In this document: positions 2,211 through 39,047 of the stretch, piece by piece
Position numbering within the stretch: position 1 is the stretch's first letter
Layout: every line of letters begins with the position of its first letter
Assembly (NCBI GenBank): GCA_963755025.1
Contig: CAVWIH010000013.1
Span: 1-64,000, forward strand
Reading direction: 5' to 3'
DNA length: 64,000 nucleotides
From: an uncultured Actinomycetes bacterium
Lineage (GTDB): Bacteria > Actinomycetota > Thermoleophilia > UBA2241
Made by a program: the position numbers and the translations under genes
Notes under the pieces: generated by a model
Told to the model about the DNA's origin: nothing
The model's input: only the letters and a program-made list of their open reading frames with translations
The model's database searches: none

Positions 2211-2259
2211 AGGTTTCCTAAACCTGGTGTCGCTGGTTCGATTCCAGCCGGGGGCGCCA
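2211..2259 (+). pseudogene. 3' half of tRNA-Arg(CCT), att-site remnant
   Basis: anticodon arm aggt-ttcctaa-acct, T-arm gctgg-ttcgatt-ccagc, CCA end; no D-arm or 5' acceptor strand upstream. Confidence 0.85.
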
Positions 2260-2307
2260 GGTCATTTTAGCCTGCAAATGGGTCATTGGGCAGGAGCAAT
2301 CGTCTCC

Positions 2308-2329
2308 GTTTGTCCTCCGTTTGTACTCC
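2308..2329 (+). repeat. putative integrase arm-type sites, left end of element 1
   Basis: tandem 11-bp-period gtttgtcctcc-gtttgtactcc, matching 38877-38898. Confidence 0.75.
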
Positions 2330-2544
2330 GTCCGCAGCGCAGTTGCGTCGCAGATAGGCGCGGGAACAGTCTGTCTTGCCTTCCGTTGGCCGATACTATC
2401 TGCGGGGCTTGTCGGACCTTTGACGGTTTGAGGGGGTAGGGCTAGCGGCCGCGAATACGCGACAAGCGTTGCAGATGGGCTCGCTGGAGGACCTTCGGTC
2501 GGCTTGGGTGATTCAGAGACGACTCATGGTCCCAATTGCATGAC

Positions 2545-2754
2545 TCATAGCATGCCAAGATGCCGCATGGAGTCTTCAATGATGGGCTGCCATCTCTGAG
2601 GACACGGTTCGACGCGCCGTGCGGGAGATTGACGATTGTGTGCCACGCGAGGTCTCTGGCCGGTCAGCTCTTTAACATGCGCGATCCAACAGGTTTTGAC
2701 CGTCTTCCCATAGCGCACGCGAATGTCGTCCTGAATCTGTCGATATGTCGCCAT
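2545..2754 (-). CDS. 69-aa protein resembling the C-terminal extension of some RumA/TrmA RNA methyltransferases
   Basis: ATYRQIQ...YGKTVKTCWIAHVK...CP...IEDSMRHLGML pattern (recalled similarity). Confidence 0.65.
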   Translation of the reverse strand: MATYRQIQDDIRVRYGKTVKTCWIAHVKELTGQRPRVAHNRQSPARRVEPCPQRWQPIIEDSMRHLGML

Positions 2755-2792
2755 GACCCCTACTTGTCGCGGCTTGTGAGCGCGATCCGACT

Positions 2793-3530
2793 CTACTTCC
2801 TCGTCTGAGAACGCAGAGACTGGATTGAGTCGATCAAGCGGTCCGCGTATTCGTTCGCCGCCGACTTCACCCACTGCGGCCTCACAATGCGCCACCAGAA
2901 CCACCCGTCAATGATTGAGATACCCAGGCAGATGATCCACCGGGAGAACCAGGATGCTTCCGGCCATTTCGTGGCGAGACTGGCAATCGCTGTCGCAGCC
3001 GTCACAACGGCAATGACCAGTGCGACGCGGCGAAGCCCCAGCGCATTGCGCCGGAACCCGTAGTCGATATTCTCGGCGAATACGAGCGGGAAGGCGTCGT
3101 GATTTCGGGTGAGCTGCCTCAGTGTGCGGACAGCACGCTCGTACACTGCATCGGCTGCCTCCGGATGCGACAATTCGTCGGCGTCATTCGGCAGCACGTC
3201 GGTGATTAACGGCTGAAGATCTCTGTGTACTGCAGCCACCGCTGTGGTATCACTCGCATCACGCCAGCGAAGACGTTGCAGTGCAGGATTCCCGCCCCAC
3301 TCCAACCAGAGTTCGCTCTGGAGCTTCTTCCCTGCGTCTCTAACGACAGCACAGGCCGCGATTCCTGCGCAGCCGAGGACGAACGTCACAACCTGACCTT
3401 TGACTACGGACGAGAAGCCTCCCACAACCAGCAGAGCAATCGCGGGACCCGCCGCCAACACGGCGGGCGCAAGCCGAGCTTCAAGTACGTATCGATCGAA
3501 GATGCGCCTAGTCCTCGTCCGACTCGTCAA
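2793..3530 (-). CDS. four-TM conserved hypothetical membrane protein (start uncertain, TTG 3530 or 3581)
   Basis: two hydrophobic helix pairs; WGG-P and FAENIDYGFRRN blocks; overlaps the MBL gene end. Confidence 0.75.
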   Translation of the reverse strand: MTSRTRTRRIFDRYVLEARLAPAVLAAGPAIALLVVGGFSSVVKGQVVTFVLGCAGIAACAVVRDAGKKLQSELWLEWGGNPALQRLRWRDASDTTAVAAVHRDLQPLITDVLPNDADELSHPEAADAVYERAVRTLRQLTRNHDAFPLVFAENIDYGFRRNALGLRRVALVIAVVTAATAIASLATKWPEASWFSRWIICLGISIIDGWFWWRIVRPQWVKSAANEYADRLIDSIQSLRSQTRK

Positions 3531-4533
3531 GGGGTTCCATCGGAGTCGCGGGGCTGTAGCCAGGACGCTGAGCCGCGCCAAGACCGTGGTGAAGCTTCAC
3601 GCTGCCGGCCGTCTGGTGTACGTAGCAACCCCGCCGCATGAAGGCATTCACGACCCTTGGTGAGGGATGCTTCGGTGCGTCTTTGGTGACGCTGACGAAG
3701 GCAGTCCTGATCTTCTCCTGTCCCGGACCTCCGAGGAGTCGGTTCAACAAATCGGAGCTGACGTTGTGACGGCTTCCGTGGTGGGGTATCTGGATGAAGT
3801 TTGGCGGGCTAGTGTCACGCCCGCTCAATTCGAGGAATGTCCACGCCCTGTCGAGGGCTGGAACACCGGCATCGCCCGTCAGCAGCCATCTATTTTCGTT
3901 TCCGAGATCGACGAATGTGATGACTCCGGTATTGTTCCTTGGGCTGGTCCCGCCATCATCATCGAATGGGATCTCAATGGGGAGTTTGGTCAGGATTCGT
4001 TGACCGAGCATCTTCGCTGCTTCGGCAAGGCCAATACCCTGTTTCCGAGCGCGTCGACCAGAGTCTTCAACGGCCACCTGCTCAGCAACCAACGACTCGT
4101 ACCATTCCTCATCGGGACCGAGAATCGTGACAGCACCGCCGAAACCATTAGTTCCGGCGAATGGCTCAACCACCGACGTGCCGAGTTCGCTGGCCAAAGC
4201 GACGAGTTCGTCGACCGCCTTGGCCGCGGGAAGACTGGCTCCGCCATGAGCACCGAGTTGGTGTATGCAGAGCGTGCTCACCTCAAGGTTCCGGAGCACA
4301 TGTCCCATCCCACCAATATGGTCACCGTCGGGGTGGGTCACGATGGCCACGTCCACGGTGTCGACGCCATACTGCTCACGAAAATGATCGACGACAGCCT
4401 CACCAGTATCTTGGAAGCCGGCGTCAACAATGATGTGCACACGCTCGCTACCATTAGGCTGGTCGAATCGAGCCATGATTGCATCGCCGGATTGTCCAGC
4501 TTCTCCAACGGGAAGAAAATCGAGCTCGAACAT
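3508..4533 (-). CDS. ComEC/Rec2-like MBL-fold metallo-hydrolase
   Basis: THPDGDHIGG (HxDxDH), LLTGDAG, QIPHHGS, KHP motifs. Confidence 0.9.
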   Translation of the reverse strand: MFELDFLPVGEAGQSGDAIMARFDQPNGSERVHIIVDAGFQDTGEAVVDHFREQYGVDTVDVAIVTHPDGDHIGGMGHVLRNLEVSTLCIHQLGAHGGASLPAAKAVDELVALASELGTSVVEPFAGTNGFGGAVTILGPDEEWYESLVAEQVAVEDSGRRARKQGIGLAEAAKMLGQRILTKLPIEIPFDDDGGTSPRNNTGVITFVDLGNENRWLLTGDAGVPALDRAWTFLELSGRDTSPPNFIQIPHHGSRHNVSSDLLNRLLGGPGQEKIRTAFVSVTKDAPKHPSPRVVNAFMRRGCYVHQTAGSVKLHHGLGAAQRPGYSPATPMEPLDESDED

Positions 4534-4987
4534 CCCTGCCCCCCTGGTGAAGAGTTCCTAGTCGCGAGCTTATCCTGAACCAATAGGCTGGGAAAGAGCG
4601 GTGCAACTTTGTTATCGGAAGAGCGCGAGGCGGCTGAGCCTCAATAGGTTAGGTGCCAGCTGGTGTAGCCTCCACCAGTGCCTAGCACGCGGTCACATTC
4701 GCGCTCATCTTTAGCGACAGCCTCGTAACCGACCTCATCCGCGGTAGCGGCGCCGTCTGAGGCAGCGGCATTATCTTGCGCCTGAAGAACTTCGGGTCGG
4801 ACTACTTGTGCGTACAGTCCCGCTCGACCTCCTCGCGGCGCCTTCGCGAGTTCGACCCGCTGAGTTTCGGCTAGCCCGCTCGCAGTTCTAAAGCACCGTT
4901 GCCGCTCTGATCTCGTCGTTGCGACTTCTAAAGTAGCGGCAATCCCCGCGTGGAGACCTCGCATTGGGCGTACCGCTTGGCTCGGTC

Positions 4988-6316
4988 TCAGGTCCCGTCG
5001 ACGATCGCCGCGAGCCGCTCGGCAGCACCCACATGCAGCGACGGCGTGGTGTGGGAGTAGATGTCCAGCGTCTGGGAGATCGTCGCGTGTCCGAGGCGCT
5101 CCTGGACCACCTTGGCGTGGACGCCGGCGGCCAGCAGGAGCGTGGCGCAGGTGTGCCGCAGGTCGTGGAGGCGGATGCGAGGCAGGGTTGTGGCGGCCAC
5201 CGCCTCGCGGAATCGTTTGGTCACAAAGCCGGGATGCAGAGCCTCGCCGTCCTCGCGCGTAAAGACGTAGTCGCTGTCCACCCAGGCCGGGCCCCAGGCG
5301 AGCCGCTCGGCAGCCTGTTGAGCCTTCCAGGTCCGCAGCGTCGCGAGAGTCACGGCGTCCAGAGGCACGGCCCGTCGGCCGGTGCGCGTCTTGGGCGGGT
5401 GCTCGAGCACGTGGGCGCCGGCGATGACGCGCGACCGCTGGATCGAGACACGGGCTCCCGCGAAATCGACGTCCGCCCACTTCAGCCCCAAAGCCTCGCC
5501 ACGCCTCATGCCGGTCATGGCATACCAGCGCCACAGGGCATGGAGGCGATCCTCGTGAGTCGCGTCTAGAAACGTGCGCAGCTGCTCGGCCGACCAGGTG
5601 TGCAGCTCCCTGGTGTCGTGACGCTGGGGCGCAGTCGCGCGCGTCGTGGGGTTCACCGCGAGCAGCCCTTGGGCGACAGCGGCGTTGAGCGCCGTCACCA
5701 GGGTCACGTAGATGTGCCGCCGGGTGCCCTCAGCGAGTGGCTTGGGCGCCAGTCCAGTCGACTCTGCGGCCTCCGGGACGTCGCTGACCTCTGGCCGCTT
5801 CTTCGCCCCGCGTCGCGGCCTGCGCGGCTTTCGTGGCTCGCTGCGCAACGCCGCATTGAAGGCGTTGATGGCGGTGGGGGAGAGCCTGCGTAGTGGCACG
5901 TCCCCGAGCAGCGGTATGAGATGGCGCTCCACGTGGGCGCGGTAGGAGATCAGCGTCGTGGCTCGCACAGACTCCTCGATGCTCGGCAGCCAATGCGCTG
6001 TGAGGTACTCGCCCACGGTGAGCTTGTCGGGCTCGACGAAGATGCCATCGAGCTCGGCGTTGAGCTGCCTCGTGAGCGCCTCGGCTGCTGCCTTCTTTGT
6101 GCGGAAGCGTTCCGGCAGGATGACCTGCCGGCGCGCCGTGATGTCGGTAAGCGGGCCGCCGCAGGTCGGGCAGGTCTCAAGGCGACCGCGGTCGCTCCAG
6201 TAACGCGGGCCACGACCGCGAGCATCGACGCAGATCGGGCAACGTTGCGCCGGCTGCTCGCCGAGCTCCAGCATTACCTCCCAGAGGCTGCCGCGCTTGC
6301 GTGCGTGACCGTTCAG
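4988..6316 (-). CDS. tyrosine integrase of element 1 (ATG 6274; homology extends to CTG 6316)
   Basis: TGMRRGEALGL, HDLRH, RLGH, DIYSH catalytic motifs; N-terminal CxxC..CxxC. Confidence 0.95.
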   Translation of the reverse strand: MNGHARKRGSLWEVMLELGEQPAQRCPICVDARGRGPRYWSDRGRLETCPTCGGPLTDITARRQVILPERFRTKKAAAEALTRQLNAELDGIFVEPDKLTVGEYLTAHWLPSIEESVRATTLISYRAHVERHLIPLLGDVPLRRLSPTAINAFNAALRSEPRKPRRPRRGAKKRPEVSDVPEAAESTGLAPKPLAEGTRRHIYVTLVTALNAAVAQGLLAVNPTTRATAPQRHDTRELHTWSAEQLRTFLDATHEDRLHALWRWYAMTGMRRGEALGLKWADVDFAGARVSIQRSRVIAGAHVLEHPPKTRTGRRAVPLDAVTLATLRTWKAQQAAERLAWGPAWVDSDYVFTREDGEALHPGFVTKRFREAVAATTLPRIRLHDLRHTCATLLLAAGVHAKVVQERLGHATISQTLDIYSHTTPSLHVGAAERLAAIVDGT

Positions 6317-6967
6317 GTCGAGCCCTTTAGATGCGGCTGGTCGCCAGGCGACACGACGCCGCCGGGCTTGCGCTTCTCGGTCGGCCCGAGCAGGCCGATC
6401 TTGGGATCGCGGCAGCGCATGACGAGCTTGGCGACCGTGTCGCGGCTCAAACCAAGCTCGGTCGCTACATCCTTCGTTGGCGAACTACTTCCCCGCGCGA
6501 ACGCCCTGCGGTAATGCATCGCCACGTCTTCTAAGTCGGCTCGCGTGTACCTGGCGTGGCGGCCGACCTTGTGCTCCGGTGGGTTCATGAGCGCAGCCAT
6601 GCGTTCGTCGATCAGCGCCAGGATGCGGGCGTCATCGGGATCGACGACGACCTTGGCGCCGGCGGTGGAATCGGCGGCAACCTTGGCGCCGGGCGCAGGA
6701 AGGGTGCCTCCACCACTTCGCGCGCCCGGCGAGCGACTCTGCCTGTTCGCGACGCGCCATGGTCAAGACACTGGCGAACGGCAACTCCCTCACTGTGCCG
6801 GCACGAAGCGGCATCGGCGCGTCGTCTTCGGCTGGGCGGATGTCCATGCCGACGCACTCCAGGCGGCCTTCGATCTCGACCATGAGGAACGACACATACC
6901 ACCAGGGCCCGTCGTCGCGGGAGCGCCAGCGGCTTCCTACCCAGTGTGCTTCATCTTCCAGTCTCAT
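6313..6967 (-). CDS. putative regulator with C-terminal HTH (DUF6214-like), split by a frameshift
   Basis: ORFs 6632-7003 and 6313-6600 read as halves of one gene; PTKDVATELGLSRDTVAKLV HTH; coupled to integrase. Confidence 0.6.
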
Positions 6968-7103
6968 GGCGGCCACGGTACACGAACGGCAAAGAACAGT
7001 CAAGTGGTCTGTTCTTCGTCCTGACGCTATAAGGCATAGACAACAGTCTTGCCGAGTCTGTGCGCTAAGAATACCATTGCCCTACCGACGGAGCGGAGGG
7101 CAC

Positions 7104-7340
7104 ATGAATACGACACAGGCTTTGGAGTTGACGGAGGCGCGTCGGCTGCTGCAGACCGGCGAAGCACGGCGGATCCGCGAGGCGGCCGGCCTGTCGTTGC
7201 AGGAAGTGGGTGAGGTCGTCGGCACGTCGAGCGCGGCGCTGTCGCGCTGGGAGACCGGCCAGCGGCGGCCCACCGGCCGCGCTGCCTTGCGCTATGCACG
7301 GTTGCTCGCGCGGCTGTCGAGCTCGGGAGGGACGCCATGA
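7104..7340 (+). CDS. XRE-family HTH regulator
   Basis: IREAAGLSLQEVGEVVGTSSAALSRWETG; ggaggg RBS. Confidence 0.88.
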   Translation: MNTTQALELTEARRLLQTGEARRIREAAGLSLQEVGEVVGTSSAALSRWETGQRRPTGRAALRYARLLARLSSSGGTP

Positions 7341-7543
7341 AGGTCAAATCGGATCCACTCACCGAGGAGGAACTGCGGCGTCGGCATACAGTCACCGTTG
7401 CCGAGTACTCGCAGATCTTCTCGGTCTCCGAAGATCTCATCTACGAAGGCTGCGCCAGCGGCCAGATTCGCCACCTCCGTCTCGGGAAGCGCATCGTCTT
7501 TGCTGTGGCGCCCATCCTCGCCGAACTCGGATACGAACGTTGA
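7337..7543 (+). CDS. excisionase-like HTH protein
   Basis: VTVAEYSQIFSVSEDLIY...IRHLRLGKRI; ATGA overlap. Confidence 0.8.
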   Translation: MKVKSDPLTEEELRRRHTVTVAEYSQIFSVSEDLIYEGCASGQIRHLRLGKRIVFAVAPILAELGYER

Positions 7544-7659
7544 GCGGCCCGCGAAGCACTGCCACTCAGCAGAAAGTCCGGTCCATCGCCGGCTATGCAC
7601 TTCCCTGCGCCGGAACACTCGAGGGCGACCTGCGTCTCGCTAACGACGATCTCTCTGCC

Positions 7660-7926
7660 ATGAGCGACCTCGATCTCCACGACGAGGGGATGGCAGCGCG
7701 CCATGCTCTTCTCCATCTCTCGCGCAGAGGCGACCGCCTGCTGCGTTGCTACCCGCGGCCTATGAGCGTCGGAGACTGGCTCAGGGCACGGATCGCCGCG
7801 ATCAGCGAGCGACTGAGCGAGGTCGACCGTAGCCTCGGACCCTCTCGCGCGACGCACGTCGTTGGCTCATTCGCCGGCGAGTCGGAGCCCGACCTTTCCG
7901 GCGTCGCGGCAGGTGGCTCATTGTGA
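7660..7926 (+). CDS. hypothetical protein (start uncertain)
   Basis: ORF coupled to the primase by a GTGA overlap. Confidence 0.45.
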   Translation: MSDLDLHDEGMAARHALLHLSRRGDRLLRCYPRPMSVGDWLRARIAAISERLSEVDRSLGPSRATHVVGSFAGESEPDLSGVAAGGSL

Positions 7927-10163
7927 ACGGGGAGGCCGGCACACCGGCACTGCTTGAAGAGGTGCTGGGCCGTTTGCGCGGCGTCAAGCAGGCCGGCACC
8001 GGCTACATGGCGCGTTGTCCCGCCCATGATGATCGCTGCGCTTCGCTGTCGGTTGCGTCGGGCGAGGAGGGGCGTGTCCTGCTCTACTGCCAGGCCGGCT
8101 GTAAGACGGCAGACGTGGCGGCAGCGATCGGTCTGCCGATGGCCGGGCTGATGGGCGACGCCAAGGGCTCCGAGGGCGGCAAGGCCAGGATCGTCGCGAG
8201 CTACGACTACTGCGACGAGTCAGGCGAGCTGCTCTATCAGGTCGTCCGCTTTGAGCCCAAGGGGTTCCGCCAAAGGCGGCCCAAAGGCCAGGGGTGGGAG
8301 TGGAAGCTCGACGGCGTGCGACGCGTGCTGTACCGGCTCCCGGAAGTGCTCCAGGCCGTGAACAGTCGCGAGGCGATCTACATCTGCGAGGGCGAGAAGG
8401 ACGTCGAGGCGCTCGAGCGCGCAGGCTGTGCGGCGACCTGCAACGCAGGCGGCGCGGGCAAATGGCGACCCGAGTACAGCGAGGCGCTCGCCGGCGCCAA
8501 CGTGATCATCGTGGCCGACCGGGACGAGCCCGGTCGCAAGCACGCCGCCGTGGTTGCGGCCGCCTTGAGGGACGTGGCGGGCGCCCTGTGCGTCGTCGAG
8601 GCTCGTGTCGGCAAGGACGCCGCCGACCATCTGGCGGCCGGCCACGGTCCAGAGGAGTTCGTGCGGCTCGATCTTGCCGTCGACGAGGCGCAAAGCGAGT
8701 CCCAAAACGAGGGTGGTCCACCGGTCGCCGAGGCGGCTCACGCAGCGGTGCTCAGGGAGAAATGGCGCGACCTCTATCGCTGGTCGCACGCCGAGGACTG
8801 CTGGCGTCGCTGGAACGGCGCTGTCTGGGAGGAGACCCCGCGGGTCGCCGTGGTCTCAGCAGCGCAGAAGGCACTGCGTCGTCACTACGGTCACTGCTTG
8901 GCAGAGAGCCAAGGTGAGGCCGAGTACAAGCGGCTGCGCGACCTGCATGCCCACGCCTGTAAGCATGCCAACGTGGTGGCCGGCCTCGCCTTCCTGTCGG
9001 GCGAGCGAGGGTTTCTCACTCTGCACGCAGAATGGGACGCCGATCCTTGGGCGCTGAACTGCGCCGACGGCATCCTGGACCTGCGCAGCCAGACCCTGCG
9101 CCCGCACGACCCCGACGCCCTGTGCACCAAGATCGCGCGCTGGAGTTACGCAGACAGCGACAGTTCGGGGGCTTGGCAACGTCACTTGCAACTCTGCCTG
9201 CCGAGTGCCGAGGTGCGCCGCCAGGTACAGCGCGACCTCGGGCGAGCACTGGTCGCCGGCGACCTCGAAGAGGTCCTGCCGATCTGGTACGGCACCGGCG
9301 CAAACGGCAAGTCGACCACCGAGCGCGCTCTGCTTGGCGGCGTCGGCTCCTACGCCAAGAAGGCGGTCAACAATCTGCTGGTGATGGCCAGGTCCGAGCG
9401 CCACCCGACCGAGATCGCCCACCTGGCCGGCTCGCGCCTCATCTTCTGCGAGGAGATCCAGGACGGCAAGCACCTGGCCGAGGCGCTGGTCAAGGACCTG
9501 ACCGGCGGAGCGCCCAAGACCGCGCGCTTCATGAACAAGGACTTCTTCGAGTTCGAACAGACCTTCTCGCTGTTCTTGTTGGTCAACCACCGGCCCGTGA
9601 TCAGCGGCACCGACAAGGGCATCTGGCGGCGCATACGCCTTGTCCCCTGGACGGTGTCGGTCCCCGCTGCGCAACAACGGCCCCAGGACGAGATGGTCGC
9701 CGAGCTCGACGCCGACGGCGCCTGGATGCTGCGCTGGATGGTCGCGGGGCTCGCCGACTGGCAGGCTGACCACCACTGGATCGCAGAGGAGGTCGAGGTC
9801 GCGACCGCCGCCTACCGTGCCGAGCAGGATCGCCTCGGCGAGTTTCTCGCCGACGTCTGCGAGGAGAAGCCGTTCGCTGAGGTCTCGGCCGCCGAACTCC
9901 ACGCCGCCCACGCCCGTTGGTGCATCGGCTCCGGCGAGGAGGAGCTGACCAAGACAGCCCTGGGAAAGGCACTCAAAAGCAGAGGCTTCACGCAGAAGAG
10001 GGGCAGTGGCGGAGCGAAGCTGTGGCAGGGGCTTCGACTGGTCGGGACGCGTTGGGACGCGTTTCCCGTAAGTTCTTCAGAATGCACGATTCATGGGGAG
10101 GACCAGGATAACGCGTCCCAACGCGTCCCAGATGCCATCGGCTGGCTGTTTGGTGCCCCTTGA
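7923..10163 (+). CDS. primase-helicase (Zn-binding, TOPRIM, P4/D5-family ATPase)
   Basis: CPAHDD..CQAGC, CEGEKD, ADRDEPG, GTGANGKST, GIWRR. Confidence 0.93.
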   Translation: MNGEAGTPALLEEVLGRLRGVKQAGTGYMARCPAHDDRCASLSVASGEEGRVLLYCQAGCKTADVAAAIGLPMAGLMGDAKGSEGGKARIVASYDYCDESGELLYQVVRFEPKGFRQRRPKGQGWEWKLDGVRRVLYRLPEVLQAVNSREAIYICEGEKDVEALERAGCAATCNAGGAGKWRPEYSEALAGANVIIVADRDEPGRKHAAVVAAALRDVAGALCVVEARVGKDAADHLAAGHGPEEFVRLDLAVDEAQSESQNEGGPPVAEAAHAAVLREKWRDLYRWSHAEDCWRRWNGAVWEETPRVAVVSAAQKALRRHYGHCLAESQGEAEYKRLRDLHAHACKHANVVAGLAFLSGERGFLTLHAEWDADPWALNCADGILDLRSQTLRPHDPDALCTKIARWSYADSDSSGAWQRHLQLCLPSAEVRRQVQRDLGRALVAGDLEEVLPIWYGTGANGKSTTERALLGGVGSYAKKAVNNLLVMARSERHPTEIAHLAGSRLIFCEEIQDGKHLAEALVKDLTGGAPKTARFMNKDFFEFEQTFSLFLLVNHRPVISGTDKGIWRRIRLVPWTVSVPAAQQRPQDEMVAELDADGAWMLRWMVAGLADWQADHHWIAEEVEVATAAYRAEQDRLGEFLADVCEEKPFAEVSAAELHAAHARWCIGSGEEELTKTALGKALKSRGFTQKRGSGGAKLWQGLRLVGTRWDAFPVSSSECTIHGEDQDNASQRVPDAIGWLFGAP
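10044..10129. repeat. perfect 20-bp inverted repeat of tandem 10-mers, candidate origin
   Basis: gggacgcgttgggacgcgtt (10044-10063) and aacgcgtcccaacgcgtccc (10110-10129). Confidence 0.75.
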
Positions 10164-10363
10164 GACGGACGATCGACGGGACTACTCACTCCACCGTCAA
10201 TGGTATTCGGAATGTCGTGGCTCCCATACTGCTTCACGACGAAGACTGGAGAGCTGTCCGCTAGGCGCGCCGTAGCGGACTGCGCGCAGCAACCCCCCCC
10301 CGCACTCACGGTGCTGCTCATCATCTGCCTGAGTGTGCCCCTCGGCGACTAGGTCAAGGCGGT

Positions 10364-10397
10364 TTGACACCCTCGGGCTACATGATAATGTTTCTCG
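10364..10397 (+). promoter_or_regulatory. sigma70-type promoter with Fur-type box, upstream of hemA
   Basis: TTGACA-N16-TAATGT overlapped by TGATAAT-G-TTTCTCG. Confidence 0.7.
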
Positions 10398-10636
10398 GCT
10401 AGGTCTGATGCGCTGACGTGCTCCTGCGGCGTGGGCACGCGTGGATGCAACGCCCAAGCGGACTGGGATGAATGGCGAAGTGTTGACTCAGTTAGGAACG
10501 TCTCCCAACGTCGTCACGGCGCCGCTTCTTTCACCTAAGCCGCTACCGTCATCGGCGCCCTTGCCCGATTGTCCATCTGAACCCGGAGCCGCGCAGGCGT
10601 TGTAGCCTCAGCGCGGGCCAGAGGAAGGGACTCTGT

Positions 10637-28636: not shown

Positions 28637-28647
28637 GCGGGTGCGCG

Positions 28648-29295: not shown

Positions 29296-29342
29296 GGGCG
29301 CTTTGTTGCTTCATCGGACATACGCGAGAAGGATAGACCGCC

Positions 29343-30894: not shown

Positions 30895-31369
30895 CAGGGG
30901 CACGGCATCTGAAAGACTTCTCGGCATGGAAGCATCGGCGCCCCGCCTACATCTCGATATCGAGGCAGTCTTCGCGGAGCGCGGCATACCGTACACGCGA
31001 CAGCGGCGGCTGATCTGGGAGTTCCTCTCGTCGTCGAATCGCGCCGCGAGCATCGCTGAGGCCGTCGCGGCGTTGCAGCCAGAGAGCATCGGCCAGTCAA
31101 CCGTCTATCGCACCATCGCCCTGATGATCGACCTCGGGTTGGTCAGCCGCGTGCAGCTGCGCAACGGCGAGACCTGTTACACGGCGACCCGGATCGGCCA
31201 CAGCCACCCGCTGATCTGCGGTGTCTGTCGCAAGGTCGTCGACTTCGACGGCGCCGGCGATCTCTCGTACCTCGAGCGCCAGCTCGAACGAACGACCGGC
31301 TTCAGCATCTACGGCCATCATCTCGAGGTCTACGGCGTGTGCTCGGACTGTCGCGCGCACGAAAGCTAA
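30887..31369 (+). CDS. Fur-family metalloregulator
   Basis: TRQR, STVYRT, HSHPLICGVC, GHHLEVYGVCSDC. Confidence 0.92.
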   Translation: MVDRGTASERLLGMEASAPRLHLDIEAVFAERGIPYTRQRRLIWEFLSSSNRAASIAEAVAALQPESIGQSTVYRTIALMIDLGLVSRVQLRNGETCYTATRIGHSHPLICGVCRKVVDFDGAGDLSYLERQLERTTGFSIYGHHLEVYGVCSDCRAHES

Positions 31370-31599: not shown

Positions 31600-31938
31600 A
31601 TGTCTATGAGATGCCCTGTCTGCAACGTTGAGGTGGGCCTGCGTTCCCGCGGCCGGCCTCGCCACTACTGCTCGCCGCGCTGCCGTCAGACGGCCTACCG
31701 TCAGCGCAGGGCGTCGTGGTCGCTCGACCCCCTACCAGCGGAGCCCGCCGTCTCAATCCCGCCTAGCAAGACCGCGGGCACTGCCGACCAGGTCGCGCAG
31801 GCGATCCTCGAGGCGCGCATGGTGACGGGTGGCCTGCTGCGCCTCGGCACGGTGGCTCGTCCGCAGTTCGCTTGGCGCTGCGCCAAGGCCGGCGCCGAGC
31901 TGCGCGAGGCGCTCGAGAAGTACTTCCCCTTCGGCTAG
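31600..31938 (+). CDS. hypothetical Zn-finger protein
   Basis: CPVC...RGRPRHYCSPRCRQ. Confidence 0.65.
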   Translation: MSMRCPVCNVEVGLRSRGRPRHYCSPRCRQTAYRQRRASWSLDPLPAEPAVSIPPSKTAGTADQVAQAILEARMVTGGLLRLGTVARPQFAWRCAKAGAELREALEKYFPFG

Positions 31939-32613: not shown

Positions 32614-32766
32614 CCTTGCTCCACGCCGTGGGCCTGCCCCGAACAATCGAGCGACGCACGCAAAGGCGCTACGGCTGTTCCTCGGGGCGACTGGTCGCGC
32701 TCTTCGGTGGGCATGGGAGCTGATGGCTGCTCCTTAGGGCAGCCCGACACGAGACGGGAGGTCGCC

Positions 32767-33117
32767 ATGATCGGCGCAGCTCACGTAATCCTTTTTGCAA
32801 CCGACGCCGAGGCGGCGCGCAGGTTCTTCTCAGAGACGCTCGCCTTAGACTCCGTTGATGCTGGCGACGGCTGGTTGATCTTCGCCCTGCCGCCGGCCGA
32901 GCTTGCCACCCATCCCACCGACGGCGAAGTCCGTCATGAGCTCTATCTGATGTGCGACGAGATCGAGGTCACGGTCGCCGAGCTACGGGCCAAGGGCGTC
33001 GAGTTCGCCGGCGAGATCAGCGAGCACAACTGGGGACGGCTGATCACCATGCGCGTGCCGGGTGCCGGCGAGCTCGGTCTCTATCAGCCAAGTCATCCCA
33101 GCCCGCTCGTCGGCTGA
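32767..33117 (+). CDS. VOC/glyoxalase family protein
   Basis: AARRFFSETL, ELRAKGVEF, NWGR, LYQP; ggagg RBS. Confidence 0.85.
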   Translation: MIGAAHVILFATDAEAARRFFSETLALDSVDAGDGWLIFALPPAELATHPTDGEVRHELYLMCDEIEVTVAELRAKGVEFAGEISEHNWGRLITMRVPGAGELGLYQPSHPSPLVG

Positions 33118-33283
33118 GTGCGGACATCGTCACTCAGTCGATGGCGTTGCAGCCTTCAGACCGCTCAGTCGGCGTGGCTGAACGGTGCGCCCAGGGGGCA
33201 GTGTCTCCGGCACCGGTGAGGACGGCGCACTCTGGCCCGTTCGTGGGCTGGAACGAAACCCAGCCCGAACGTAGCATGACCTC

Positions 33284-34216
33284 ATGCCCTGGCCGCCACC
33301 ACACTCATCGTCGCACGCGGAGGCGAGAGACGCGCGGCGGCGTCGCCTCCTGCCGCTCGTCCTCGCCACCGTCGCGCTGATCGCCGTAATCGGCGTGGTA
33401 GTGGCCGTCGAAGCTTCACACAAGCCTGCCCACCCAGATACGGCGGTCCTGCCCTCAGACACACCCTCGGCACATCCCGCTCACAGCCACTCCCGTCGCC
33501 ACCACGGCCGTCCTGTCGCCGTTCCCGTCCTCATGTTCCACCATGTCGCGCCACGTGCTGAGGGCTCACCGCTGCTCTGGGTCACGCCTCGCCAGCTGGC
33601 CGCCGAACTGGCCTGGCTTGGTCACCACGGCTACCACACCGTCACGCTGGCTCAGGTCTACGCCCGCTGGACGACGGGCAGCCCGCTACCCGTACATCCC
33701 GTGGTGCTCAGTTTCGACGACGGCTATCTCGATCAGTACCGCTACGCCGCGCCTGTGTTGCGCCACTACCGTGACGTCGCCGTGCTCAACCTGATTGTCG
33801 ACAACCTCGGCCGCGCCCTGACCGTCGCCGACGTCTCACGCATGGCCGCCTGGGGCTGGGAGATCGACTCCCACACGATCACCCACCGCGACCTGGCCCT
33901 GCTGCCCGCGCGCGTCGTGCGCTACGAGCTGCTCGGCTCGCGCAACCTACTGCGCCGCTACCTGCATCTGCCGATCGACTTCTTCTGCTATCCGGGTGGC
34001 GCCTACGATGCCGCCGTCGTCCGACAGGTGCGCGAGGCGGGATACCTCGCCGCGACCTCGGTCATCTACGGTCTGGCCCGACCGGCAGAGCTCTTCACCC
34101 TGCCCCGCATCGTCGTCTTCGGCGGCGAGCGACTCCAGCTGTTCGGCGAGAGCCTCGGGGGTTCGGAAGAGGCTGGCGATGCGATCGACCGGGCCGTGAA
34201 CGGCGCGGGGCTCTAA
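33284..34216 (+). CDS. membrane-anchored polysaccharide deacetylase
   Basis: PVLMFH, SFDDG, DSHTITH, FCYPGG. Confidence 0.92.
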   Translation: MPWPPPHSSSHAEARDARRRRLLPLVLATVALIAVIGVVVAVEASHKPAHPDTAVLPSDTPSAHPAHSHSRRHHGRPVAVPVLMFHHVAPRAEGSPLLWVTPRQLAAELAWLGHHGYHTVTLAQVYARWTTGSPLPVHPVVLSFDDGYLDQYRYAAPVLRHYRDVAVLNLIVDNLGRALTVADVSRMAAWGWEIDSHTITHRDLALLPARVVRYELLGSRNLLRRYLHLPIDFFCYPGGAYDAAVVRQVREAGYLAATSVIYGLARPAELFTLPRIVVFGGERLQLFGESLGGSEEAGDAIDRAVNGAGL

Positions 34217-34234
34217 GCGGCCAGTGCCGGCATC

Positions 34235-34441
34235 CTAGAGCAGCTCGATGCGCTCGAGGTCGACCCCGCTGACCTCGATGAAGTGCGGGGCGAGGGTGCC
34301 CTCGACGCGGATCGTGACAGAGCGGCCGCGCGCGGCGGCCATCGCGTCACGACCACTCAGTGTCGGCTCGTTGCGACCGACGACGACGCCCGTCTCGCCG
34401 TCGTAGCGCACGCGCTTGCCGAGCAGATCGAGCGTGTTCAT
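34235..34441 (-). CDS. small hypothetical protein
   Basis: 68-aa ORF with typical codon usage. Confidence 0.5.
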   Translation of the reverse strand: MNTLDLLGKRVRYDGETGVVVGRNEPTLSGRDAMAAARGRSVTIRVEGTLAPHFIEVSGVDLERIELL

Positions 34442-34565
34442 GCACGCACTGTACGACAGGCACCCCCGACGACCCTTTCGGAGAAGGTCGCGGCGTCTGC
34501 TTGCCCGCCAGGGTGGTCGGAGACGCCCGAGGGGCGTCTCGCTCGTGCTGCTGTATGGGCGGGCC

Positions 34566-34698
34566 AGCGGCGGGCACAGATCCGCGAGGTTTGCTCGGCG
34601 GTTCGCCCTGGCCCGCCATGCCGCTACATTCTGAGTGCGACCAGCGCAGGGAGCTGGCGTGACACACCCAGACACCAATGAGCGGCACCAGCAGCTGC
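34566..34698 (+). repeat. ~135-bp dispersed repeat, copy 1
   Basis: aligns with 37469-37609; first 25 bp identical. Confidence 0.9.
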
Positions 34699-34946
34699 TG
34701 TCCACGGACGGCGCGACGGTGCAGCGGGCCGACGCCGCCTGAGCGTCGCGGACTCTCTCGGCGGTCGGCGTCGAAGACTCGATCAGGCGCGCCCATGACT
34801 TCGCACCGGGTGCTCGCCGCAGCGCGAATGCGTGGGCCAATCACCGCTTACCAACCGAGGCGAGTCGGGTGGGTTGAGGGTCCGCAGTCGCAGGGTGCTC
34901 CCGCGACGCCGGCCGCGTCCGAAGCACCGTTGGGTCTGGTCCGAGG

Positions 34947-35855
34947 CTATCCGCCTCGCAAATCGGCCGCCAGGCCCGCCACGCCCTGGCCGCGCTCGAT
35001 CTCGAAGCGGTCAAGCTGGAAAGGATCACTCCTCGTGGCGTAACCTGCGTTCTCGGTCGTCGCGTTCGTGTAGCCGGCCGCGCTCACTGCCGCGATCACC
35101 GCAGCGTCGTACTTGCTCGACGGATAGCAGAAGCTGTTCACAGGGACGCCCAGTAGGCGCTGCAGGTAGCGGCGGCTTGCGACCACCTGGTAACGCAGCT
35201 GAGAGGGGCTCAGAGTGGTCAGGTCGGGGTGACTCACCGAGTGCGAGTCGACCTCCCAGCCGAGCGCGACGAGGCGGCGCAGCTGGGCCGGGTGGAGGTG
35301 ACCTGCGGTGATCTCGTTGAGCACCCCAGGCCAACCGTAATGACCCAGCACCTCAGGGGCGAAGGTCGCCTGCTCGGGGTAGCCGTTGTCGAAGGTGATG
35401 ACGATCGGCTTGGCGGGTAGCGTGCCTTCCGCAAACCAAGAGCGCATGACCTCGTCGAGGGTGACCGCCTGGTAGCCCTGGTCGGCAAGCCAGCGCATCT
35501 CAGCCAAGAATTCTGATTTCGCCACGTAGAGGCCGGGGTAGGGCTCGCTTGGCGGCGGCGTGCCCAAGGCGTGGTAGACGAGGATGGGGACAGGTCCCGT
35601 GTGGCGTCGCCAGTCGGGCTGCGGGCGGGCGTTGCGGACGAGGTGCGCGGTCGGTCGGCTTGCCGGCCGCGACGCCGCGACGTGCGTTGCGCTCGGCGAA
35701 GGTGAGGCCGCGGCGCTCGGCGTGGCTGACGGGTGGCTGTGAGCGCCGAGCGCGCCCGTCAGGGCGAGCGCGACGACGACCACCGCCGCCAGGAAGACGC
35801 CCAGGACGGCCAGGCGACGGGACAGGATGCGGCGGCGTTGTGCGCGACTAGGCAT
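34947..35855 (-). CDS. membrane-anchored polysaccharide deacetylase
   Basis: PILVYH, TFDNG, DSHSVSHP, FCYP. Confidence 0.9.
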   Translation of the reverse strand: MPSRAQRRRILSRRLAVLGVFLAAVVVVALALTGALGAHSHPSATPSAAASPSPSATHVAASRPASRPTAHLVRNARPQPDWRRHTGPVPILVYHALGTPPPSEPYPGLYVAKSEFLAEMRWLADQGYQAVTLDEVMRSWFAEGTLPAKPIVITFDNGYPEQATFAPEVLGHYGWPGVLNEITAGHLHPAQLRRLVALGWEVDSHSVSHPDLTTLSPSQLRYQVVASRRYLQRLLGVPVNSFCYPSSKYDAAVIAAVSAAGYTNATTENAGYATRSDPFQLDRFEIERGQGVAGLAADLRGG

Positions 35856-36090
35856 GGTGAACGAACTCCCGCCCGCTCCAGACCCTCTTGCCCGCCACGA
35901 CCACCGGCACGGGAAGAGCGTCTCGGGCCACCCGGATGGTGCGCCCCGACCTCGTGGCCGGGAGGCTGCCGCGCATGATCTGTTGGTAGATTGCCTGTGG
36001 GCTCACCCCGGGGTAGGCGGCCACGACCTTGACGCTGATCTGCTCGGGCAGATCGGCGTAGGCGGGGGTGGTGTCAAGACGGTAGGGCAT
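35848..36090 (-). CDS. excisionase-like HTH protein
   Basis: ISVKVVA..GVSPQAIY..GSLPATRSGRTIRV. Confidence 0.6.
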   Translation of the reverse strand: MPYRLDTTPAYADLPEQISVKVVAAYPGVSPQAIYQQIMRGSLPATRSGRTIRVARDALPVPVVVAGKRVWSGREFVHHA

Positions 36091-36302
36091 CACACCTCCA
36101 TTGGGGCCGCGTGCCGCTTGTGCCGCCGAGGCGACCTCGCAACCACCGACCATACCGGACCGACCGACAACTCGCACATTGTGAAGTCGCATTAGGGGCT
36201 CGACGACTGTACCTCGCATTCGGCTATGATCAGCGCCGCCGGCACGACGGATCCCTGGGCCGTCGCGATGCAAGCTCTCAAACAGGACGTCTGACAGCCG
36301 AC

Positions 36303-37358
36303 ATGCACCACCACGTCTACCACATGAGCTTTCTCCAGGCGATCGTGATCGGCATCGTCCAGGGCATCGGCGAGCTGTTTCCGGTGTCGAGCCTCGGGCA
36401 CACGGTGCTGATCCCGTCCTGGTTCGGTGGCAGCTGGGCGAAGCTCGTCTCCCAGGAGTCGATGCCCGAGAGCCCCTACCTCGCCTTCGTCGTCGGCCTG
36501 CACCTGGCGACCGCTCTCGTGCTGGTCGGCTTCTACATCCGCGAGTGGGCTCGCATGGCGGTCGGATTCGCGCGTAGCCTGGGCCGGCGCCGCATCGCGA
36601 CCGACGCCGAGCGACTGGCCTGGCTGATCGTGGTGGCGACGATCCCGGTCGGCATTCTCGGGTTCGCCTTCGAGCACGAGTTCCGGGTGCTCTTCGCCAA
36701 GCCGCTCGCCGCCGCGCTGTTCCTCATGGCAAACGGGGTCATCCTGCTCGCCGGCGAGACCTACCGGCGACGCAACGCGGCGGCCGCAACGGCGCGGCAG
36801 ACCGCAACATCGGCGCTCTACGTCGAAGAGCGTCCGGGCTTCACAGCCGGGTCGCGGCCGGCAGGGGCGACGGTCGGCGGTGCGTCAGCCGGGGCGTCGG
36901 CAACCGCGACCATCTCGGCAGCGCGCTTTCGCGACCAGGCCATCGTGCCTATGGACGCCGCAGCCGAGCATGACCTAGCCCGGATCGGCTGGGCGAGCTC
37001 CGGCATTATCGGCGCCGCCCAGGCGCTGGCGCTGCTCGCGGGCATCAGTCGCGAGGGCGTCGCCATGGTCGGCGGTCTCTTCCGCGGGCTCGACAACGAG
37101 AACGCCCTGCGCTTCTCGTTCTTGCTGTCCACGCCGGTGATCTTTGCGGCCGGCATTCTCAAGGTGCCCGACCTCACAGGGCCGCTCGGTGCCGGCATCC
37201 GTGGACCGGTGCTGGCCGGCACGGTCGCCGCGGCCGGCGCGTCGCTCTTTGCGGTCGTCTTCCTGTCGCGCTACTTCAAGACGCGCACGCTGTTGCCGTT
37301 CGCCGTGTACTGCCTGGCCTTCGGCTCCATATCGGCGCTGCGCTTCGGCATCTTCTAG
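36303..37358 (+). CDS. uppP: undecaprenyl-diphosphate phosphatase with Ala-rich insertion
   Basis: QGIGELFPVSSLGH, GISREG, FSFLLSTP. Confidence 0.92.
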   Translation: MHHHVYHMSFLQAIVIGIVQGIGELFPVSSLGHTVLIPSWFGGSWAKLVSQESMPESPYLAFVVGLHLATALVLVGFYIREWARMAVGFARSLGRRRIATDAERLAWLIVVATIPVGILGFAFEHEFRVLFAKPLAAALFLMANGVILLAGETYRRRNAAAATARQTATSALYVEERPGFTAGSRPAGATVGGASAGASATATISAARFRDQAIVPMDAAAEHDLARIGWASSGIIGAAQALALLAGISREGVAMVGGLFRGLDNENALRFSFLLSTPVIFAAGILKVPDLTGPLGAGIRGPVLAGTVAAAGASLFAVVFLSRYFKTRTLLPFAVYCLAFGSISALRFGIF

Positions 37359-37468
37359 GCGGAGTAAGCCGGAATCTACCGGGACACTGTGGCGGCTGGC
37401 CTGGGCGCCTCTTCGCGCGGCCCTACCGACCGCAGACCAACGGCAACGCGGAGGCCATCACAACAACG

Positions 37469-37609
37469 AGCGGCGGGCACAGATCCGCGAGGTGTCCTCG
37501 GCGGTTCGCCCGGACTCGCCATGCTGGTACATTCTGAGTGCAACCAGCGCAAGGACCGGCGTGACGCGCCCAGACACCGAGACCAGCAGCGAGCGACACG
37601 AGCAGCTGC
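37469..37609 (+). repeat. ~135-bp dispersed repeat, copy 2
   Basis: aligns with 34566-34698; its GTG (37561) is in frame with the radical SAM gene. Confidence 0.9.
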
Positions 37610-38831
37610 GCGCCTACCAGCTCGGCGACGGGGTGGTCGACTCGGTCGACTTGAAGACCCTGCTTGTGAGCAGAGGGCTGCGCGTGCCCGCCGAGGTCTA
37701 CCGGCGCCTGTCCGGCAGTGCCCGGCTCTCGCCGGACCCGCTTGCCTGCAACTGCCTGATCCTGCCCGACGGCACTATCGTGCAGCTCACGGACCTCGCC
37801 CTGCATATGGGCTACGTGCGCTCGGCGATCTCCTGGGACCTGCTGCGCCAGCTGCGCTACCTGCGCCAGCTTTCCACGCCGTTCAGCCTGAGCGTGACGC
37901 CCGCGGGCCGGGCGTGGCTACTGCACACGGACCGACCTGTGACCGAAGTCACGTTTCCGTCGCCGTCCGCCTTCTACGACCAGCACACGAGCAGCGGCCT
38001 GCCGTGTCGCGGCAACGCCGTGCTCCAGGGCCGCGAGTGGCTCTCGTTCCAATGCCTGTGGCCCTGCGCCTACGCCTGCGCCAGCAAGCCCTGTCAGTAC
38101 TGCTACTCCGGCGGCGTCTTTGCCAGCCTGGCCAAGAGGGGCAAGCCGCTGCCGTCGTTTCCTACGCCGCAGGACGCGGCCGAGATCGCAGCCTGGGCCT
38201 TCGCCCACGAGGAGAGCCTCAGCAGTATCCAGATAACCGGCGGCTCGACCTACGACAGCGACGCTGAGTGCGAGCTCATCACGAAGTACCTGCAGGCGAT
38301 TGATCATCGTGTCGGTCGCGAGAACATAGGCGGCGAGATCGTCGTCTGTGCGACGCCGCCCAAAAGGCCGCAGTCGCTGGACCGCGTCTTCGCCGCCGGC
38401 GCCGACCGTGTCTCGATGAGCTTCGAGATCTGGGACGAGAAGATCGCGCGCCGCAGTCATGCCGGGCAAGGCTGAGGCGATCGACCGAGCTCGTCACCTG
38501 GAGTGCCTTGAGTACATTGTTGCCACCCATGGCTCGAGTAGTGCCTGCAGCAACTTCATCATCGGGCTCGAGTCGGCGGAGAGCTGCCTCGAGGGCGCCG
38601 AACAACTCGCCGCCCGCGGCGTCGTGCCGATCGCCTCCGTGTGGATCCCCATTCGGACGTCCCGTGCTCGGCTCGATGCGAGCACCGGGCCTGTCCTACT
38701 TCCGGCGCATCAAGGCGGGCCTCGCCCGCATCTACGAGACCTGCGGTCTTGAGCCGCCGGGCGGCAGCGGCCTCAACGTCTGCATGTGCAAGGATGTGCA
38801 TCGGCACCGCCGGGGGATTCTCGTCGCCTGA
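37561..38831 (+). CDS. radical SAM protein, frameshifts near 38450 and 38650
   Basis: CAYACASKPCQYC, ITGG, SFEIWD, MPGK, NFIIGLES, C-terminal CMC. Confidence 0.8.
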
Positions 38832-38876
38832 GCAGCGTCCCGGTTCCCCCCTCGTCTATTCATCGCGACCGCCGCG

Positions 38877-38898
38877 GTTTGTACTCGGTTTGTACTCC
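38877..38898 (+). repeat. putative integrase arm-type sites, right end of element 1
   Basis: gtttgtactcg-gtttgtactcc, 11-bp period. Confidence 0.75.
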
Positions 38899-39016
38899 CT
38901 ATTGGCGCCGAATGCGCCGAAGCGAGCCCACTGCCGCCGACCCCGGCTCCGCATCTTCCCTGCAAAGAGCCGATATCCGCCGAGATGGGCCGACAGCCGC
39001 CGATGGCTCGATGAAA

Positions 39017-39047
39017 TCGCTGGTTCGATTCCAGCCGGGGGCGCCAG
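39017..39047 (+). repeat. att repeat (tRNA-Arg 3' end) at the element 1/2 junction
   Basis: identical to 2230-2260. Confidence 0.95.

Follow-up and report, generated by a model that had tools for sequence, protein, structure and literature searches.

The stretch of DNA analysed here, hereafter the window, covers 64 kb from the start of contig C13. The contig belongs to a 3.37-Mb actinobacterial genome in 39 contigs (labelled G000), which is rated 84% complete and 5% contaminated and is therefore a metagenome-assembled genome (MAG). Two direct repeats in the window enclose a segment of 36.8 kb (2261-39016), with genes of an integrative element at its left and genes for the corrin ring of cobalamin (vitamin B12) in its middle, and this putative element and its cargo are the subject of the present analysis. 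The open reading frames (ORFs) of the element were profiled with Pfam, PHROGs and NCBIfam, tRNAs were searched with ARAGORN and Rfam, and defence genes with PADLOC. A preliminary description of the same DNA had reported perfect attachment (att) repeats around an integrase gene (int), divergent regulators, an excisionase gene (xis), a primase-helicase, hem/cbi/cob genes and further small genes, in that order, and both the repeats and the gene order were borne out. The borders and the backbone genes are the following:

2074-2210, plus strand: right end of the neighbouring upstream island, outside the element and defining its left junction
2211-2260, plus strand: 50-nt 3' fragment of tRNA-Arg(CCT), whose last 31 nt (2230-2260) are the left repeat copy, or attL core
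2304-2331, plus strand: left arm-type repeat, a tandem doublet (2307-2328) of CGTTTGT(C/A)CTC, putative integrase arm site
4988-6274, minus strand: tyrosine integrase of 428 residues (Phage_integrase profile positions 5-169 of 172, SAM_3 present)
6313-6600, minus strand: excisionase-like small helix-turn-helix (HTH) protein of 95 residues (HTH_17, 23.5 bits against a Pfam cut-off of 27)
6759-7340, plus strand: XRE-family regulator, divergent from int-xis
7923-10163, plus strand: primase-helicase of 746 residues (Toprim_3, D5_N, DUF5906; phrog_6088 DNA primase, 1e-113)
31600-31938, plus strand: backbone small gene after the cargo, an ORF of 112 residues
32014-32613, plus strand: backbone small gene, a phage-like HTH protein of 199 residues, whose nearest feature-based clusters are viral HTH proteins
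38873-38898, plus strand: right arm-type repeat, a tandem doublet (38876-38897) in the orientation of the left one
39017-39047, plus strand: right copy of the 31-bp repeat, or attR core, followed by DNA that in genome G004 follows an intact tRNA-Arg

A script search placed the 31-bp direct repeat at 2230-2260 and 39017-39047, the two copies being identical at 31 of 31 positions. When up to 3 mismatches were allowed, these were the only 2 copies in the window, and 100 shuffles gave 0; the possibility of a further, degenerate att copy within the element was dropped, since none was found at that threshold. The repeat is the 3' end of tRNA-Arg(CCT), and the match to this tRNA covers 50 nt at the left copy (2211-2260, 100%) and 31 nt at the right. 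Neither ARAGORN nor Rfam found a whole tRNA gene in the window, and an intact tRNA at either border was rejected for that reason; the complete tRNA-Arg(CCT) gene lies on C14 (c[616-691]), a contig that ends 615 bp away from it. The left arm-type doublet, CGTTTGTCCTC CGTTTGTACTC, lies 47 bp inward of the left repeat, and the right one, near-identical and with its orientation kept, lies 120 bp before the right repeat. The 12-mer [CG]GTTTGT[AC]CTC[CG] occurs five times on the two strands of the 3.37-Mb genome, and four of the five occurrences are the two doublets inside the repeats. Among the 89 genomes of the family, G000 included, that were searched for this pattern and for the primase, the doublet was found in 9 (1 mismatch allowed), and a reversed control in none. 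These doublets are probably arm-type integrase sites.

In the sister species G004, an intact tRNA-Arg(CCT) on contig C47, which ends 84 bp upstream of it, is joined directly to the right-flank DNA of the element: the tRNA is followed by a DUF3024 gene (83% identical to 39017-39588 of the window) and then by 5.6 kb at 96.5% to 39987-45551. All the DNA between tRNA and flank in G000 is therefore extra relative to G004, and the tRNA-Arg site is unoccupied in this sister species, so that the empty site which the preliminary description suggested looking for in relatives was indeed found.

Judging from its neighbourhood in other genomes, tRNA-Arg(CCT) is a hotspot for tandem arrays in the genus, and this would explain why fragments of 50 and 31 nt occur here. 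Genome G010 has one intact tRNA-Arg(CCT) and six 50-nt fragments, each preceded by sequence like 2074-2210 of the window and followed by sequence like 39048-39137. These fragments are on its contig C3 near 43.5, 82, 113.6, 142.5 and 161.7 kb and on C5 near 25.6 kb; they stand 19-39 kb apart, with a conserved "right end" before each and a conserved "left end" (the DUF3024 gene) after it. Counterparts of 2074-2210 were matched at 75-84% in six places of G010 and in G003, each directly before a tRNA fragment, and G003 itself carries a 50-nt and a 31-nt tRNA-Arg fragment 6.5 kb apart (C238 at 9368 and 15859). The C14 DNA downstream of the intact tRNA in G000 is 77% identical to 39017-39587 of the window. 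In G000 the tRNA-Arg of C14 would then come first, followed by an upstream island that stops at 2210 and by the 50-nt fragment; the element and the 31-nt fragment would come next, and a further, degenerate island last. The region right of the element looks like such a degenerate island with a split integrase. This second integrase (48090-49306, minus strand) is 37-55% identical to that of the element and is split over two frames, and 60-80-bp copies of its 3' end region lie upstream, the repeats being at 42341-42401, 46587-46668 and 48089-48170. Also in this region, three tandem copies of about 300 bp (41159-41902, 73-79% identical) lie within a long ORF (40523-42217), so that its product is apparently a repeat protein.

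The integrase of the element is full length, and its translation holds the catalytic R, K, HxxR, H and Y motifs (RRGE, KTR, HDLRHT, GH and IYSH). The 3' end of the primase gene contains two copies of a 10-mer (10044-10063) and two of its reverse complement (10110-10130), and these inverted doublets are a possible origin; the iterons of the preliminary description amount to these four copies and nothing more. Homologues of the 199-residue protein stand after the primase in the elements of G082 and G015, and homologues of both small genes stand directly before a capsid gene on contig C16 of G000. The region of C16 in question (G000:C16:34287-46500, at tRNA-Met) is prophage- or satellite-like, with an integrase, an XRE gene, an AAA_25 protein, the two homologues, and then genes for capsid and tape measure; the scanned part of C16 showed neither terminase nor portal. 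An integrative conjugative element (ICE), including the actinomycete type (AICE), was rejected since transfer genes were not found by Pfam: the 56 ORFs of 12-42780 gave no match at E ≤ 0.001 to FtsK/Tra translocase, relaxase or type IV secretion families.

Relatives of the backbone were found within the family, where 15 of the 89 genomes had primase matches at E ≤ 1e-30. With the primase as query, a scan of species-representative genomes returned 5 loci at 31-36% (Rothia and one deltaproteobacterial MAG), and a metagenome scan returned 17 loci, the best at 62% over 116 residues, the others at 49% or less, and no close relative. The element of G023 (C51) shows the order tRNA-Met, doublet, integrase (46% identical), xis-like gene, XRE gene, doublet and a 38-bp tRNA-Met 3'-end repeat; its doublets are 8.75 kb apart and the whole is about 9.0 kb, with the geometry of the G000 element. 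On G001:C183, at tRNA-Arg(CCG), xis, XRE and primase are 70%, 69% and 61% identical to those of the G000 element, and on G082:C1 the order is tRNA-Glu, integrase, XRE gene, primase (63%), the 199-residue homologue and three small ORFs. At tRNA-Met on G015:C13 the 199-residue homologue (45%) again follows the primase, and both here and on G001:C183 a doublet lies between the tRNA gene and a related integrase. These small relatives thus share with the G000 element the arm doublet beside a tRNA-derived repeat, as well as integrases at 45-49%, xis at up to 70%, XRE at up to 69% and primase at 44-63% identity. They differ in lacking cbi genes and in using other tRNA genes, and the only one with both ends seen is about 9 kb, so that the G000 element is about four times as large. 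On this comparison the backbone appears satellite-like, a label that refers to backbone resemblance only.

Between the primase stop (10163) and 31369 lies a cargo module of about 21 kb and about 20 genes, running from hemA to a gene of the Fur family. Gene calls below are from Pfam/NCBIfam unless otherwise described:

10364-10389, plus strand: promoter/operator-like motif TTGACA-N9-TA(C/G)ATGATAAT, left edge of the module
10637-11914, plus strand: hemA
11911-12951, plus strand: hemC
12948-14174, plus strand: apgM-like gene (TIGR02535-type "proposed homoserine kinase"), candidate L-threonine kinase "CbiU"
14526-15794, plus strand: NicO/NicT-type nickel/cobalt transporter, between the apgM-like gene and cobD
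16283-17473, plus strand: cobD, threonine-phosphate decarboxylase
17470-18906, plus strand: cbiA
about 18930-19274, plus strand: cbiX cobaltochelatase (match of a whole-genome family search at 18930-19241, confirmed by Pfam)
about 19283-19888, plus strand: cbiC
to 21783, plus strand: cbiD-cbiE in one frame
to 22526, plus strand: cbiT
to 23227, plus strand: cbiL
23224-24077, plus strand: cbiF, with a 1-base gap near 23667
to 24907, plus strand: cbiG
to 25584, plus strand: cbiH
to 26972, plus strand: cbiJ-cobO in one frame
to 28636, plus strand: cobQ
28648-29295, minus strand: precorrin-2 dehydrogenase of the CysG N-terminal type (sirC-like)
29343-30894, plus strand: cobA (uroporphyrinogen-III methyltransferase) fused to hemD, the hemD part in a second frame
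30980-31369, plus strand: Fur-family regulator, its stop codon being the right edge of the module

An NCBIfam or Pfam match was obtained for every step in the ring part of the early-cobalt-insertion pathway, namely uroporphyrinogen-III methyltransferase (SUMT), precorrin-2 dehydrogenase, CbiX/K, CbiL, H, F, G, D, J, E, T, C and A, the adenosyltransferase and CobQ. By its gene content the module thus covers the route from uroporphyrinogen III to adenosylcobyric acid plus the linker; the preliminary description had already traced the cluster to adenosylcobyric acid, and CbiX, which it overlooked, can now be added. Two pairs of genes, cbiD with cbiE (19246-21783) and cbiJ with cobO (24867-26972), each occupy one open frame free of stops and may encode fusion proteins. 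In the corrinoid operon of Dehalobacter restrictus, an apgM-like gene was proposed to be the L-threonine kinase "CbiU" (PMC4285132). Together with CobD, the apgM-like product would give the aminopropanol-phosphate branch. To our knowledge, the L-threonine kinase activity of "CbiU" has never been demonstrated.

Riboswitch control is usual for cbi operons. No cobalamin riboswitch was found in the window at the Rfam gathering score, nor in 10000-32000 at E ≤ 1; the genome has one elsewhere, at C20:95179. The promoter-like motif at the left edge of the module recurs in the sister species (G004:C14:1332, G004:C300 and G002:C12), upstream of hemA in G004 and of a cobQ remnant in G002. The Fur-family regulator, the conserved motif and the lack of a riboswitch suggest a control based on metal rather than on the product, B12. 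In composition, the G+C content is 72-77% in the 18-31 kb interval, 59-70% in the backbone and 64-70% in the flanks.

The presence of the module in other genomes was assessed with an 11-kb probe (cbiA to cobQ) in 40 relatives, 149 weaker matches lying beyond those listed. Among the matches listed for congeners, G004 was covered over the whole length (86-91%) and G002 at cobQ only (91%), while six others had only cobQ, at 71-80%, and a cobO-like part, and three had only short cobO-like parts. Most of the cluster was also matched, at 69-77%, in G015 and G020, which belong to two other genera of the family, again among the matches listed. The G004 module aligns to 12902-31358 of the window, with 88.5% identity over 14.7 kb, and the homology ends exactly at the fur stop codon, as does that of G002. 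At its right end the G004 module adjoins DNA syntenic with contig C22 of G000 at 8158, and on a second G004 contig the start of hemA is separated by about 250 bp, in which the promoter motif lies, from the gene found across C22:8208. At the same chromosomal place, G002 (an assembly 61% complete) has kept nothing of the module but its promoter motif, cobQ and 150 bp from the end of fur. No element genes were found beside the module in G004 or G002. In G000 itself, C22 at 8158-8208 is a plain intergenic stretch of about 70 bp, free of the module and with no recognisable scar. Genome G003 was dropped as an empty reference for this chromosomal site, its flank matches being 1.09 kb apart with unrelated DNA between them. 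Since the boundaries are shared, the stretch from the promoter motif to fur is one discrete unit, chromosomal in two sister species and inside the element here. The three sister species thus display three states: the module in an element, the module in the chromosome and a decayed remnant.

As to its age, four chromosomal segments place G000, G002 and G004 at about equal distances from one another (88-95%), and their module copies of cobQ are 92.2-92.6% identical in pairs. The module is therefore as diverged as the species themselves, and it was present in the common ancestor of the trio or arrived about then. In a DNA tree of cobQ (15 rows, rooted on one row from another class, 4 rows below 900 nt being omitted), the copies from the three modules formed a clade (100/100) that grouped with other genera of the family (97/99, 98/99) and stood apart from the cobQ resident in the genus, including the C12 copy of G000. 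This points to acquisition of the module from outside the genus. Given this age and the chromosomal copies, the element houses the module in G000 and is not necessarily what imported it. As to hemA, the module copy is 96.8% identical to the resident hemA on C19 (a repeat at 10622-11899, 96.6-96.8%), both copies are about 88% identical to the hemA of G002, and the identity falls to about 82% at the hemA stop. This pattern indicates probable gene conversion or recruitment within the G000 lineage, and it ties contig C13 to genome G000.

The remaining steps of B12 synthesis were sought elsewhere in the genome. The preliminary description had listed hemL, hemB, cbiB, cobU, cobS and cobT as absent from the window; hemL and hemB were located on contig C12 and cbiB, with cbiZ, on C17, but cobS, cobU and cobT were not found. 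Both cobS and cobU occur in 10 of the 11 congeners (the other genomes of the genus), the exception being the 61%-complete G002. A late-step and salvage gene set without corrin-ring genes is supported as the baseline of the genus. With 17 matches to the B12-binding domain in its genome, the host is a heavy B12 user. ARAGORN also called a tRNA-Pyl (CTA) at G000:C10:71096-71168 and a tRNA-Sec (TCA) at G000:C24:14507-14604, and these calls are consistent with heavy corrinoid use. The resident, genus-type cobQ (G000:C12:26531-28068) aligns to the module CobQ in three different frames, and in the resident cobO fragment (G000:C26:9090-9594) the C-terminal half alone is open. Both genes may be decaying because the module supplies the two functions, or the breaks may be assembly errors.

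Taken together, we consider 2261-39016 to be a single site-specific integrative, satellite-like element that carries the ring module as cargo, a reading to which we assign a probability of roughly two in three (0.68). That the module is an insertion into the backbone of a small element is likewise supported by comparison: the 199-residue homologue follows the primase in G082 and G015 while 21 kb intervene here, the G004 homology stops exactly at the fur stop codon, and the G+C content differs from that of the backbone. Recombination at the 31-bp core would be the work of the integrase, with guidance from the arm repeats just inside each end, and the element would have integrated at an att site derived from tRNA-Arg(CCT) within a tandem array of islands. 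Between its primase and its small genes, the element would have received a self-contained 21-kb module that brings its own promoter/operator-like motif, Fur-family regulator, cobalt importer, hemA and hemC, and that is predicted to encode the early-cobalt-insertion enzymes from uroporphyrinogen III to adenosylcobyric acid as well as the aminopropanol-phosphate branch (CbiU-like protein and CobD). The host chromosome would supply hemL, hemB and cbiB and, by analogy with the congeners, probably also cobU, cobT and cobS, which were not found in this MAG. The module is presumably older than its present association with the element; it would have entered the ancestor of the three sister species from another genus of the same family, and would then have come to lie in the element in the G000 lineage and in the chromosome in the two sisters. 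The module may have been captured by the element from the chromosome, or the chromosomal copies may descend from one in the element; the near-trichotomy of the three species does not order these events.

Several observations weigh against this reading. In the cargo, cbiF matches its profile at positions 1-151 and 158-247 in different frames, with 1 base missing at 23667 relative to G004, and the hemD domain is split near 30363, with 1 base extra relative to G004. These frameshifts may reflect a broken pathway or consensus errors; frame-breaking indels also separate these MAG assemblies in other regions. The families of cobS, cobU and cobT were not found in this MAG, rated 84% complete and 5% contaminated. 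The excisionase scores under the Pfam cut-off, and neither packaging, capsid-redirecting, terminase or capsid genes (in any backbone ORF) nor conjugation genes were found in the element with Pfam and PHROGs. In the sister species the module stands, free of the element, between two conserved genes of the chromosome. Neither an excised circle nor a repaired site turned up among assembled contigs from public runs and, over 1500-13500, no contig listed had 31 letters on both sides of 10163 or of 10622.

The claims of the preliminary description on mobility and function stood only in part. That this is a mobile add-on agrees with an integrative unit that has matched ends, an intact integrase and an empty site, but the unit need not have brought de novo synthesis with it. 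The conversion of a salvager into a producer fits the late-step and salvage baseline of the genus, yet cbiF and the hemD domain bear apparent frameshifts. A phage-satellite-like core was recognised by backbone resemblance, but no packaging or capsid-redirecting gene accompanies it and 36.8 kb is beyond usual satellite sizes. The description had also named, as a refuting observation, close relatives with the cluster at a fixed locus and no element, and this is literally what was observed, with the whole module in G004 and a remnant in G002.

A different history for the same parts would make the module ancestral in the element, which delivered it to the three-species clade, the module later moving to the chromosome in the G004/G002 line. 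The module cobQ is xenologous to the cobQ resident in the genus, the three species are nearly equidistant, so that parsimony leaves the events unordered, and the chromosomal site of G000 is plain intergenic DNA with no recognisable scar, all of which would be compatible with such a vector. However, neither the 89 family genomes nor one metagenome scan contained a second case of the module in such an element, and element genes are absent beside the module in G004 and G002. We hold this history to be possible but rather unlikely.

Less probable still is that the segment is a composite island, fixed and no longer mobile, in which elements piled up at the tRNA-Arg hotspot and lost their internal att sites, the cbi module came in by ordinary recombination and the outer repeats are leftovers of different elements. 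Such an origin would suit a locus that is a tandem-array hotspot (six fragments and an intact gene in G010, two fragments in G003), as well as an integrase 2.7 kb from the left end, two frameshifts in the cargo and a split neighbouring integrase (48102-49306). Moreover, the roughly 90 bp before the right repeat (38928-39016) are 81% like the arm beside a different type of integrase in G003. A single element is nevertheless favoured by the presence of one integrase and no third att copy within 3 mismatches, by repeats identical at 31 of 31 positions, by an arm doublet at both ends with the geometry of the 9-kb G023 element, and by a backbone order on both sides of the cargo that matches the small relatives.

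The continuity of the cargo junction was also checked in public data. One search with 9600-10700 gave 14 rows in 9 studies, of which only X1 held at least half of the words, and contigs of X1-X4 (three peat metagenomes and one soil metagenome, one run of which may be the source sample) were compared with 1500-13500. Near-identical short contigs from 4 runs tile 9723-10140, 10150-10300, 10238-10553 and 10356-10643, none of them covering the stretch from end to end, and a 30-nt junction string gave 0 matches in a metagenome scan. That C13 is an assembly chimera, misjoining an integrative element and a chromosomal cbi cluster, for example through the duplicated hemA, is very improbable: it could draw on a MAG with 5% contamination, on the hemA repeat (10622-11899, 96.6-96.8% to C19), on the module of G004 and G002 being at another site, on the absence of a bridging contig among those listed under the 31-letter rule and on two metagenome scans that yielded no independent copy, but it requires two misjoins, both at gene boundaries and exactly in the gap between the primase and the 32014-type gene of the small relatives, while 10164-10621, left of the hemA repeat, differs from the C19 flank and carries the module-specific promoter motif, the chromosomal site of G000 (C22:8158-8208) is empty, and the contigs from the 4 runs tile 9723-10643.

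Besides the ring module, the element carries accessory genes in its left arm and in a second cargo block (32707-38475):

3508-4533, minus strand: metallo-beta-lactamase (MBL)-fold protein matching the candidate anti-phage defence component PDC-M48B (PADLOC, E 1.2e-60)
32707-33117: glyoxalase-fold protein
33284-34216, plus strand: polysaccharide deacetylase
34947-35855, minus strand: polysaccharide deacetylase
36111-37358: UppP/BacA
to 38475: radical-SAM-like ORF

The left-arm segment (2261-4987) has a G+C content of 59-60%. Its MBL-fold protein also gave weaker matches to LmuA and to MBL proteins of the Avs1a type, and stands as a defence-like accessory gene beside the integrase, as in many satellites. 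In the second cargo block, an 87-bp direct repeat (34566-34652 and 37469-37555, 90% identical) flanks deacetylase and UppP genes.

In soils and peat only a minority of microbes make B12, and many others depend on these producers. A ring module held as a unit in an integrase-bounded, replication-competent element would offer a concrete route by which producer status is gained, lost or moved, and a whole vitamin pathway could pass between bacteria that otherwise only scavenge B12. The three states of the module in close species would also make a natural system for the capture of a large biosynthetic cluster by a small mobile backbone. A bolder proposal is that a satellite of soil actinobacteria, dependent on a helper phage, captured a complete, self-regulated corrin-ring pathway (about 20 genes, precursor genes and a cobalt importer included) from the chromosome of its host, and that a single tRNA integration, in relatives equipped for late and salvage steps only, converts B12 scavengers to producers; we regard it as unlikely, but if it were true, a mobile element could switch vitamin auxotrophy on or off in the communities of peat and soil.

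P4-like satellites, phage-inducible chromosomal islands (PICIs) and tRNA islands typically combine an integrase, an excisionase-like HTH/AlpA protein, an XRE regulator, a primase of the D5/P4-alpha type and phage-like small genes. As in these satellites, the G000 element is integrated at a tRNA 3' end with direct repeats and has a defence-like accessory gene beside its integrase. A satellite genome that fits a reduced capsid is roughly 10-20 kb, and the 36.8 kb of the G000 element make it two to three times the size of characterised satellites. It differs from them also in that no terminase, capsid or size-redirection gene was found with Pfam and PHROGs, no helper phage is known, and the cargo is a 20-gene biosynthetic pathway instead of defence or virulence genes. 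The cob/cbi(-pdu) islands of Salmonella, Limosilactobacillus reuteri and Streptococcus sanguinis are large, patchy among close relatives and compositionally distinct, and in these three respects the cobalamin cluster of G000 is like them. They are not known to have att repeats at their borders together with a cognate integrase and a replication module.

The nearest functional precedent that we found is pSZ77, a 77-kb plasmid of Geobacter lovleyi that carries 15 of the 24 cobalamin genes, with cbiB, cobU, cobS and cobC only chromosomal (PMC3403914). Going by that account, pSZ77 resembles the G000 element as a mobile replicon with the anaerobic corrin-ring part and cobalt transport, some of its genes being duplicated on the chromosome. 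It is, however, a plasmid in a deltaproteobacterium, whereas in G000 we have a chromosomally integrated tyrosine-recombinase element in an actinobacterium, and unlike pSZ77, so far as the account describes it, the G000 module includes hemA, hemC and its own Fur-type regulator. The operons of D. restrictus similarly contain an apgM/TIGR02535-type gene inside a corrinoid operon, in a pathway complete but for a methyltransferase lesion, in cbiH there and apparently in cbiF in G000; they differ in being chromosomal and riboswitch-associated, in a Firmicute and with no mobile element (PMC4285132). A full-text literature search, screened at the level of search results, turned up no account of an att-bounded integrase element or satellite with a cobalamin ring cluster inside it. 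Islands integrated at tRNA genes with metabolic cargo are a well-known kind. What would be new here is the insertion of a vitamin pathway, complete and self-regulated, into a backbone of which the sole fully bounded relative is about 9 kb, together with sister species that display the chromosomal and the decayed states of the same module.

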